Below are positions 51,901 through 53,961 of a stretch of DNA of 64,000 bases, one piece after another. The translations under genes were made by a program, and so were the position numbers. The first letter of the stretch is position 1; each line of letters starts with the position of its first letter. A model generated the notes under the pieces. The model did not search any database. It was not told the DNA's origin and saw only the letters and a list, made by a program, of their open reading frames with translations. The DNA comes from Escherichia coli (GTDB lineage Bacteria > Pseudomonadota > Gammaproteobacteria > Enterobacterales > Enterobacteriaceae): the NCBI RefSeq assembly GCF_003334785.1, contig NZ_QOWV01000001.1; one strand, written 5' to 3'.

Positions 51901-52073
51901 TGCCGCCCGTTTACAGGATTGAGGCACCGACGCAGATCATCATCCAGACGCAGCCAGGACAAAGTGCGCAGGATATTGCGCGGGAGGTGGCCCGCCAGCT
52001 TGATGAACGTGAACGCAGGCTGAAGGCAAAGGCCAGGAGTAACTACAGCGATCAGGGGGGATACGACGCATGA
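48969..52073 (+). CDS. In-frame fusion ORF: N-terminal part of phage replication initiator (gpA/RepA-like) joined to C-terminal part of tail tape-measure protein (gpT-like); likely deletion remnant
   Basis: 1034-aa ORF; N-terminal approx. 430 aa carry the rolling-circle motif-1-like [11 protein letters not shown]; the C-terminal half has Ala/Leu/Gly-rich helical repeats and the [21 protein letters not shown] block, then overlaps gpU. Confidence 0.6.
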
Positions 52074-52555
52074 TGATGGTGCTGGGATTGTACGTGTTTA
52101 TGCTGCGCACCGTGCCGTATCAGGAACTGCAGTATCAGCGCAGCTGGCGACATGCGGCTAACAGCCGGGTAAATCGTCGTCCGTCCACGCAGTTTCTGGG
52201 ACCGGACAACGACATGCTGACGCTTTCCGGTGTTCTTATGCCGGAGATAACAGGCGGCAGGCTGTCGTTGCTGGCACTGGAGCAGATGGCAGAACAGGGG
52301 AAAGCATGGCCTCTGATTGAAGGCAGCGGCACGATTTACGGCATGTATGTGATTGAGGGACTGAATCAGACTAAAACGGAGTTTTTCCGCGACGGTATGC
52401 CGCGCCGGATTGAGTTCACCCTGTCGCTCAAACGGGTGGATGAATCCCTGTCCGATATGTTCGGTGATCTCAGTGCGCAGCTGAATAATCTGCAGGGAAC
52501 GGCAACATCAGCCTTAAGCGATATCAGTAAAACGGTGGGAGGGCTTCTGTCGTGA
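52070..52555 (+). CDS. Phage tail protein U (P2 gpU-like)
   Basis: 161-aa ORF overlapping tape-measure stop and gpD start, in P2 T-U-D order. Confidence 0.75.
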
Positions 52556-53652
52556 ATTTCAGCTCTGAACTGCTTAACAAAGGCAACAAAACTCCGGCAT
52601 TCAGCATCAGTATTGAAGGCAGGGATATCACCACTGTGCTGGACAACCGCCTGATGGGGCTGACGCTGACGGATAACCGGGGATTTGAAGCGGATCAGCT
52701 TGATCTGGAGCTGGACGACGCCGATGGAAAAATCGTGCTGCCGCGCCGTGGTGCGGTCATTACGCTGGCGCTGGGCTGGAAGGGGCAGCCGCTTTTCCCG
52801 AAAGGGGCATTCACGGTGGACGAGATTGAACACACTGGCGCACCGGACCGCCTGACTATCCGGGCGCGAAGTGCTGATTTTCGGGAAACCCTGAATACCC
52901 GCCGTGAAAAATCTTGGCACAAGACCACCGTCGGGGAAGTGGTAAAGGAAATAGCCGCGCGTCACAAGCTGAAGATGGCGCTGGGTAAAGACCTGTCGGA
53001 TAAGCCCGTGGAACATATAGACCAGACTAATGAGAGTGACGGCAGTTTTCTGATGCGGCTGGCGCGACAGTACGGTGCCATCGCGTCGGTGAAAAATGGC
53101 AATCTGCTATTCATCCGGCAGGGGCAGGGCAAAAGCGCCAGTGGTAAACCACTGCCAGTGATCACTATCACACGCAAGGACGGCGACAGTCACCGCTTTA
53201 CCCTGGCAGATCGCGGAGCCTACACGGGCGTAATTGCCAGCTGGTTGCATACCCGCGAACCTGCGAAGAAAGAAAGCACCACGGTGAAGCGTAAGCGCAG
53301 AACTAAGAAGCAGAAGAAAGAGCCAGAAGCGAAGCAGGGCGATTACCTGGTGGGTACGGATGAAAACGTGCTGGTACTTAATCGCACTTATGCCAACCGG
53401 AGCAACGCCGAACGAGCGGCGAAAATGCAGTGGGAACGCCTGCAACGCGGCGTTGCGTCATTCTCGCTACAACTGGCAGAAGGGCGGGCAGATCTCTACA
53501 CGGAAATGCCAGTGAAAGTCAGTGGCTTTAAACAGCCGATAGATGATGCGGAATGGACCATTACGACTCTGACGCATACCGTCAGCCCGGATAACGGTTT
53601 TACGACCAGTCTGGAGCTTGAAGTGAGGATTGATGATTTCGAAATGGAATGA
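52552..53652 (+). CDS. Phage tail/late control protein D (P2 gpD-like)
   Basis: 366-aa ORF after U and before the ogr-like gene. Confidence 0.75.
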   Translation: MNFSSELLNKGNKTPAFSISIEGRDITTVLDNRLMGLTLTDNRGFEADQLDLELDDADGKIVLPRRGAVITLALGWKGQPLFPKGAFTVDEIEHTGAPDRLTIRARSADFRETLNTRREKSWHKTTVGEVVKEIAARHKLKMALGKDLSDKPVEHIDQTNESDGSFLMRLARQYGAIASVKNGNLLFIRQGQGKSASGKPLPVITITRKDGDSHRFTLADRGAYTGVIASWLHTREPAKKESTTVKRKRRTKKQKKEPEAKQGDYLVGTDENVLVLNRTYANRSNAERAAKMQWERLQRGVASFSLQLAEGRADLYTEMPVKVSGFKQPIDDAEWTITTLTHTVSPDNGFTTSLELEVRIDDFEME

Positions 53653-53742
53653 TTCTTCGCAATGGAGAACTTTTAAGTTTGCAAAATGGAATAATGCGGT
53701 ATCATTATTGTGAATTTAGCAAAAATGGGGAGAACTCGAAAA

Positions 53743-53961
53743 ATGATGATTTGCCCACTGTGTGGAAGTGCCGCCCATACTCGCAGCAGTTTTCAGGTAT
53801 CTTCATTGACCAAAGAGCGTTACAACCAGTGCCAGAACATTAACTGCAGCCATACTTTTGTTACCCATGAAACTTTTGTTCGTTCGATTGCAACGCCAAA
53901 AGAGTCAAATCCGGTTCAGCCGCATCCAATGAAATCAGGACAGGTGGCGCTCTCTCTTTGA
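53743..53961 (+). CDS. ogr: Late-gene transcriptional activator, Ogr/Delta (186 B) zinc-finger family
   Basis: 72-aa product MMICPLCGSAAHTRSS...CQNINCSHTF with the C-x2-C...C-x4-C zinc finger, last gene before attR. Confidence 0.85.
   Translation: MMICPLCGSAAHTRSSFQVSSLTKERYNQCQNINCSHTFVTHETFVRSIATPKESNPVQPHPMKSGQVALSL

Follow-up and report, generated by a model that had tools for sequence, protein, structure and literature searches.

A defective P2-like prophage at the rybB gene of Escherichia coli, and the probably geometric survival of its D-ogr end

Background

In this work we focused on a stretch of 64,000 nucleotides of Escherichia coli DNA (contig NZ_QOWV01000001.1 of assembly GCF_003334785.1), hereafter called the window, and on a P2-like element that it carries next to the small RNA (sRNA) gene rybB. 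A sequence-only reading of the window had drawn attention to the right end of this element, where the late genes U and D and the late activator gene ogr lie beside the attachment site, and had suggested that the repeated survival of the D-ogr end in separate remnants reflects either the geometry of deletions or selection for the late activator. We mapped the element against intact relatives and followed the survival of its two ends in complete E. coli genomes. The region is probably what remains, on the att-proximal right side, of a 186/P2-like prophage (Peduoviridae) made defective by one internal deletion, the survival of D-ogr being mainly a matter of geometry.

Methods

Counts were made in 5,426 complete E. 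coli genomes; at least 80% of each query had to be matched, and each junction was counted separately. The intact 34.4-kb prophage at rybB in strain 10034940-2 (locus L002) was the reference for mapping the deletion, and several Pfam assignments for genes of the window come from an identical locus (L008). Other comparison loci are cited by their L numbers where they are needed.

Results

The element spans positions 42452-54052 of the window (11.6 kb), between rcdA (ybjK) and ybjL, and its insertion target is the 3' end of rybB. At the empty site of K-12, rybB alone lies between these two genes. A 14-nt core, AACAAAAAACCCAT, forms the 3' half of the rybB terminator and is found at both ends, as expected for a site-specific insertion with duplication of the att core. 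The attL core, by rcdA (42452-42465), is a displaced copy of this half-terminator, as seen in the alignment with the K-12 empty site and with attR; the attR core (54039-54052) overlaps the 3' end of rybB. The rybB gene itself is complete (54039-54117, minus strand; Rfam RF00110, 105.3 bits against a gathering threshold of 40, model positions 1-79 of 79). It is convergent with ogr, the gap from the ogr stop codon to the rybB 3' end being 77 nt, and its flank was found in 5,419 of the 5,426 genomes.

The gene order, int-CI / apl-cII-...-A ... T-U-D-ogr-att, is that of Peduoviridae and is collinear with annotated prophages and phages of this group. As the sequence-only reading had noticed, the surviving late genes are the 3' end of the tape-measure gene T, U, D and ogr; the map of open reading frames (ORFs) and the family searches gave no other late gene in the element. 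Between its early and late parts, gene A, for the replication endonuclease, is kept up to codon 434 (A', 48969-50270, plus strand; PHROG 91 over residues 2-434, and alignments with the intact gene and with A of P2) and is joined in frame there to the last 600 codons, 426-1025, of T ('T, 50271-52073, plus strand; PHROG 5690/28, and alignments across the junction). This yields a single ORF of 1034 amino acids (48969-52073), of which residues 1-434 are the N-terminal part of A and residues 435-1034 the C-terminal 600 residues of T, so that 58% of T is retained. A' ends just short of the HUH motif, without the catalytic tyrosines and without the replication origin (ori).

Compared with L002, the window is collinear up to nucleotide 1302 of A and resumes at codon 426 of T, with 24,236 bp missing in between and a 2-nt (TG) microhomology or overlap at the junction. 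With this DNA the element lost the nuclease domain of A, which has the HUH motif and the tyrosines, and the counterpart of ori, placed at about A codon 675 from its homology to the annotated nick site of P2. Also gone are cos and all genes for head, lysis, baseplate, fibre, sheath and tube; the deletion stops 3.4 kb before attR. The gene set for lytic growth, namely the A nuclease domain with ori, cos, capsid, lysis and tail genes, is thus incomplete, and with these 24,236 bp missing the element is a defective remnant and not a functional prophage.

The A434::T426 junction occurs in none of the 5,426 complete genomes. The exact 1034-residue chimera is nevertheless present, with the same neighbours, on 13 independent draft or Sequence Read Archive (SRA) contigs (for example GCA_012211965.1), and the junction is therefore not an assembly artefact. 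The early region is 99.9% identical to that of other rybB-site elements, and the T'-U-D-ogr segment is 99.9% identical to L002. As judged from these sequence comparisons, the deletion is real, recent and limited to a small clone, and after an event that is recent and clonal, no particular reason has to be sought for U and D being intact. The surviving genes should be annotated as a prophage remnant, and the 1034-residue 'phage tail tape measure protein' of public databases is an A'::'T chimera. Many comparable chimeras, in which A' or O' is joined to a late gene or X' to 'D, are likewise annotated as ordinary phage proteins.

Both genes that follow 'T are intact and have the same lengths as in the intact prophage at this site. 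U (52070-52555, plus strand) encodes the tail protein gpU of 161 amino acids (PHROG 76, E = 1.7e-83; PF06995 in L008), and D (52552-53652, plus strand) the late control or baseplate hub protein gpD of 366 amino acids (PHROG 52, E = 1e-175; PF05954), a protein found in exactly this form on 60 contigs. The last gene, ogr (53743-53961, plus strand), encodes a late activator of the Ogr/B type, 72 amino acids long and with a Cys4 zinc finger, identified by PF04606 and by alignment with P2 Ogr and K-12 OgrK. Its start is the ATG at 53743, preceded by GGGGAG, which gives the 219 nt annotated in relatives; an 83-residue ORF beginning at the GTG at 53710 was discarded as over-extended with respect to that length.

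The protein matches PF04606 (Ogr_Delta) over residues 4-49 (model positions 2-47 of 47, i-E = 5.9e-22) and PHROG 603 (E = 8.4e-30), and the zinc-binding residues C4, C7, C30 and C35 are invariant in comparison with P2 Ogr, K-12 OgrK and the homologue in L010, a remnant inserted at ssrA. It is 51% identical to both P2 Ogr and OgrK, and it reaches 98.5 bits with the OgrK equivalog model (NCBIfam NF007241), below the cut-off of 116; this score and this identity place it in the family as a protein of the 186/rybB-phage lineage and not as an orthologue of OgrK. The amino acid sequence is the same in all seven rybB-site copies compared, including that of E. coli B, and the seven genes show 0-1 substitutions, too few for a dN/dS estimate.

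Upstream of ogr a candidate sigma-70-like promoter, TTTGCA-16-TATCAT, lies at 53678-53705 (plus strand), a weak candidate, as the consensus scan found one such match with 1.0 expected. Its -10 hexamer is overlapped by an inverted repeat, AATAATG-N6-CATTATT (53690-53709), which is a possible operator from its sequence. A search for CI operators common to the immunity switch and the ogr promoter gave none beyond 7-mers, and the inverted repeat has no match in the CI switch region. No late promoter was found in the remnant; the only two TGT-N12-ACA matches are chance occurrences in AT-rich, non-late DNA.

P2-like elements occupy rybB in about 20% of the complete E. coli genomes, and their two ends are kept equally. 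The rcdA-int junction was found in 1,098 genomes and attL with the whole of int in 1,080; at the other end, the ogr-rybB junction, represented by the last 100 nt of ogr, was found in 1,105, and the junction with full ogr and 38 nt upstream in 1,119. At least about 580 nt of D are kept in 950 genomes. There was no appreciable number of truncated ogr genes among the roughly 1,100 genomes having the ogr-rybB junction.

At least ten independently deleted remnants were identified, all of them with a complete ogr and usually with a fragment of D of 113-760 nt. Those at rybB are the window, EC05, PSJ-16, EC596, L011, L013-L016, E. coli B and CM151362, and others lie at ssrA (L010) and at cyaR (K-12). 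Their junctions differ. EC05 has A'::'lysC and V'::'T-U-D-ogr; PSJ-16, L013, L014, L015 and L016 have five different O'::'D-ogr junctions; EC596 and 13C1079T have a fibre gene joined to the last part of D (117 nt of D), L011 has V::'D (124 nt), CM151362 has terminase::'D (113 nt), E. coli B and NCTC10537 have cin'::'D (403 nt), PS00260.4 has sheath::'D-ogr, and L010 has A'::'J ... U-D-ogr. The O'::'D remnants (L005 and L013-L016), of about 17 kb, retain int, CI, the early operon, intact A with ori, cos, portal, terminase and ogr. From this gene content a helper might in principle allow them to replicate and to be packaged, in the manner of P4.

These counts bear on what the sequence-only reading had proposed. 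It had drawn on two cases, this element and the separate K-12 remnant with ogrK and the D fragment yegZ, which indeed lies at another locus, in the cryptic prophage PR-X; the repeated survival of the D-ogr end holds well beyond these two. The counts at rybB bear out the recurrence of D-ogr persistence and reveal no excess over the int end (1,105 against 1,098 genomes), so that a preferential retention of the D-ogr end is not supported. Nor is U-D-ogr a retained module: it is rather what a single deletion did not reach, and the segment from int to A' survives as well.

Several deletion endpoints recur at the same nucleotide. Nucleotide 1302 of A (...GCGTGCGGGTG) is the left endpoint in three lineages that differ by about 3-4%, and is joined to T in the window (50270/50271), to lysC in EC05 (position 9122 of L001) and to J in the ssrA element (about position 7064 of L010). 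Nucleotide 913 of A is also joined to three partners, and further hot zones in A lie at codons 342-348 and 425-441. In the capsid scaffold gene product gpO, codon 267 (...RQRATGG) is the last one before the break in more than 18 different fusions; the partners are V, W, N, X, K, sheath, tube and four sites in D. Two complete genomes are broken there at the identical nucleotide (about position 25680 of L005 and 1704 of L013), and a perfect 7-bp hairpin, TACCGCC-N11-GGCGGTA, has its 3' base at this site. On the right side, a site in K ('VWTDGIG') and three in D ('NRGFEADQ', 'TREPAKK' and 'NLLFIRQ') recur with different left partners.

Several explanations for the recurrent endpoints were considered, and two of them, the ori nick and common descent, were discarded. 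Aberrant termination of rolling-circle replication at the ori nick does not fit, as the P2 nick is at A nucleotide 1859 and its homologue lies about 720 nt downstream of the breakpoint. Common descent of the A434 endpoint in the window and EC05 is countered by the even divergence of about 3% in A' up to 100 nt from the junction, and also by the third lineage, at ssrA, which has the same endpoint with another partner. Resection by RecBCD limited by Chi is unsupported: GCGGGTGG, which is Chi with one mismatch, ends at A434, but such sites occur every 400 nt or so, and they are absent at the other hot zones. A cut specific to GCTNAGC (BlpI-type) or to the 8-mer GCTGAGCC may play a part: the 8-mer has only two copies in the prophage, which abut two of the left endpoints, but such a cut does not account for O codon 267 and A nucleotide 913, where the hot spots are strongest. 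For an association with hairpins, the local folding energy at breakpoints was shifted only weakly (Mann-Whitney P = 0.046), and the shift is confounded by GC content. That endpoints recur at identical nucleotides could mean that these prophages are inactivated by a defined mechanism.

The early side of the remnant, from attL to A', is retained. The intact integrase gene encodes 350 amino acids (42540-43592, minus strand; assigned from the ORF list, the Pfam Phage_integrase match in L008 and the 'phage integrase' annotation of relatives). The 186-type CI repressor gene lies at 45372-45968 (minus strand; Pfam Phage_CI_repr and Phage_CI_C in L008, and annotation in relatives). The early lytic operon (45969-48972, plus strand; ORFs, PHROGs and Pfam in L008) contains apl/cox-like, cII, fil, DUF5347, DUF2732, DksA-like and Dam genes, the DksA-like zinc finger gene being at 47891-48118 and the Dam methylase gene at 48115-48972, both on the plus strand.

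Between int and CI, and still present in the remnant, lies a cargo gene for anti-phage defence of the PD-Lambda-1 / SNIPE type (DUF4041 and T5orf172; 43675-45351, minus strand). It encodes 558 amino acids, has a GC content of 0.36 and is recognized by PADLOC as PD-Lambda-1 (E = 2.4e-120), with the Pfam domains SNIPE and T5orf172 in L008. This gene may be what actually benefits the host. Its retention agrees with a preprint describing defective P2-like elements with conserved defence genes (10.64898/2026.02.27.708500).

Elsewhere in the window and unrelated to the prophage, positions 12113-12155 (minus strand) match the sRNA family ES036 (CssrF) of Rfam with 41.6 bits against a gathering threshold of 37.6.

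Discussion

The account that we favour, and consider probable, is that one internal deletion of about 24 kb, running from A codon 434 to T codon 426, spared both att-proximal ends of a defective 186/P2-like prophage. U, D and ogr would then be intact because the event appears recent, and not because they form a functional unit. Deprived of a late promoter, U, D and 'T could be read only by read-through from the CI-repressed early operon via A'::'T. Since ogr retains a candidate promoter and a ribosome-binding site of its own, Ogr can probably still be made, as far as its upstream sequence tells. With no late promoter left it would have no target in cis, and any activity would be exerted in trans, at the late promoters of P2-like phages or P4-like satellites that enter the cell.

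More generally, the P2-like prophages of E. coli probably decay from the inside outward through repeated internal deletions, and such decay would let the int and ogr ends both persist. A deletion crossing attR would also destroy the rybB terminator. A study of 1,384 prophages found that replication, packaging and release genes are preferentially lost and that integrase is enriched in incomplete prophages (PMC7744054), a pattern that we count in support of inside-out decay. Together, inside-out decay and the constraint from rybB would explain most of the survival of D-ogr. For the sharp edge at ogr, selection on ogr or a mutational bias against its lower-GC DNA is needed.

Several observations weigh against an explanation by geometry alone. 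About 155-170 of some 1,110 elements (about 15%) keep less than 580 nt of D, their late side being eroded to about 1 kb or less from attR, and erosion is asymmetric, part of int being lost in only about 18 genomes (<2%). Of the right endpoints, at least 11 distinct ones lie within D, 38-554 nt from its 3' end; the next 386 nt, made up of spacer, ogr and spacer, contain none. Were endpoints uniform over 946 nt, the probability of this pattern would be about 0.003, a post hoc value in a sample in which several remnants were found with queries containing ogr or D and in which genome counts are not independent events. The candidate promoter of ogr, on which its expression would depend, is no better than chance (one found, 1.0 expected).

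This edge is what would be seen if ogr and some 100-200 nt upstream were kept by selection, a resident late activator being of benefit to the host or to the element. We regard this as possible but rather unlikely, and we take an equally tentative view of its variant, in which the activator acts in trans on the late genes of P2-like phages or P4-like satellites, whether these enter the cell or already reside in it. In another variant, remnants that have kept ori and cos could use a helper, as P4 does with Delta. The absence of truncated ogr among about 1,100 junction genomes (1,105 for its last 100 nt against 1,119 for the full gene) speaks for such selection, as do the shortening of D in about 15% of elements with the crowding of endpoints at its 3' end, the identity of Ogr in seven elements in which the flanking DNA differs by 1-4%, and the O'::'D derivatives, which keep int, CI, A with ori, cos, Q, P and ogr. 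However, the int end is retained just as often, ogr is a small target of 219 nt, and Ogr is equally identical in intact prophages, so that its conservation is not specific to remnants. The helper version is inapplicable to the remnant in the window, which is without ori, cos and late promoters. The GC content of the ogr region is 0.446 as against about 0.56, that of breakpoint DNA is 0.550 as against a background of 0.516, and the local structure at breakpoints is slightly more stable; with ogr low in GC and breakpoints higher, a mutational bias could mimic the boundary. Here too, counted genomes are not independent events.

The boundary might instead be set by the host sRNA gene, deletions across attR being eliminated through the loss of rybB, with the small ogr nearby hitch-hiking. 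It agrees with the complete rybB (105 bits) whose terminator lies within the 14-nt core, with the presence of the rybB flank in 5,419 of the 5,426 genomes, and with the situation in K-12, where PR-X overlaps the last 18 nt of cyaR and ogrK is convergent with it at a distance of 101 nt. Yet endpoints would then be expected in the 386 nt of ogr and its spacers, where there are none as against 11 in the adjacent 554 nt of D, and the barely eroded int side is left unexplained; as the sole cause of the boundary we find it doubtful. A contribution of this constraint is already part of the account given above.

That T'-U-D-ogr should be a functional unit, such as what is left of a tailocin or of a contractile injection device, or a regulated part for toxin delivery, is highly improbable. 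U and D are intact, and D is a VgrG/gp27-like hub with a weak similarity to NCBIfam VgrG_rel, but the sheath, tube, baseplate wedge, fibre, E/E' and lysis genes are absent, whereas an R-type tailocin has sheath, tube, baseplate and fibre genes under late control. Moreover, only 58% of T remains, fused to a fragment of a replication protein, the late promoter is gone, and other remnants have lost U and most of D. A last reading joins two of the patterns described above: ogr and its upstream DNA would be actively retained and the deletions would arise from nucleotide-precise hot spots, so that the decay at the edge would be neither random nor neutral. We hold this combination to be improbable. 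Were it true, ogr would be a domesticated or element-selfish trans-activator, the O'::'D remnants might be helper-dependent, P4-like mobilisable mini-phages that need Ogr to turn on the late genes of a helper, and the deletions would stem from breaks made by a specific mechanism and not from illegitimate recombination at random.

Whichever process sharpens the edge at ogr, rybB is a major attachment site of P2-like elements, at which erosion affects the late side and scarcely touches the int side, and with ogr persisting, the old idea of domesticated late activators can be put to a direct test.

Comparison with known systems

The intact rybB-site Peduoviridae, for example the prophage of strain 10034940-2, the Escherichia phage vB_EcoM-813R9 and the Klebsiella phage KP12, are collinear with the element and 96-99.9% identical to it over the retained segments. 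In their circular genomes T'-U-D-ogr-att-int-...-A' is one contiguous block, and the window differs from them by the absence of the approximately 24 kb that run from A codon 434 to T codon 426. With 186 B, P2 Ogr and P4 Delta, the Ogr of the window shares the Cys-X2-Cys...Cys-X4-Cys finger and the position as last gene before att, a likeness read from the sequence alone; it differs from them in that no cognate late promoter is present in cis.

PR-X of K-12 is a fixed remnant, present in 360 complete genomes. Like the window, it has a complete gene of the ogr family and the 3' part of D next to attR and beside an sRNA gene. In both elements the ogr-family gene and the sRNA gene converge, and the att core overlaps the terminator of the latter (cyaR in K-12; positions 7115-7201 of L004). 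PR-X differs in lying at the cyaR locus, which is the P2 attachment site, and in its P2-type OgrK, 51% identical to Ogr of the window. Only about 630 bp are kept there, int and the early region having been lost, whereas the element in the window has 11.6 kb with int, CI, the early operon, the defence gene and full-length U and D; it thus shares with the K-12 type ogr and the 3' part of D by attR and an sRNA gene, but has not lost int, immunity or the early genes. Barreiro and Haggard-Ljungquist are said to have described the remnant of K-12 at the attachment site of P2 in 1992, and the cryptic ogr genes of K-12 and B were reportedly found to be functional by Slettan et al. in the same year, which for these two genes would correspond to the functional test that the sequence-only reading had proposed.

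The defective prophage of E. coli B occupies the same rcdA/rybB/ybjL site, belongs to the same phage family and has an Ogr identical to that of the window. It too has internal deletions, one of which ends in D, 403 nt from its 3' end. Unlike the window, it has an uninterrupted A, a retron, cos, Q and P, and most of the genes for baseplate and fibres; it is without sheath, tube, T, U and most of D, and its junctions are O'::'K and cin'::'D as against A'::'T. In E. coli B-ZidR (L012) the retron, consisting of a St85-family reverse transcriptase and an effector, sits in the cargo slot by cos. The E. coli B prophage is presumably also the source of the classical 'P2 Hy dis' hybrids. By these comparisons the element in the window is an ordinary kind of phage remnant, and its closest precedents are the K-12 remnant and the E. 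coli B prophage.

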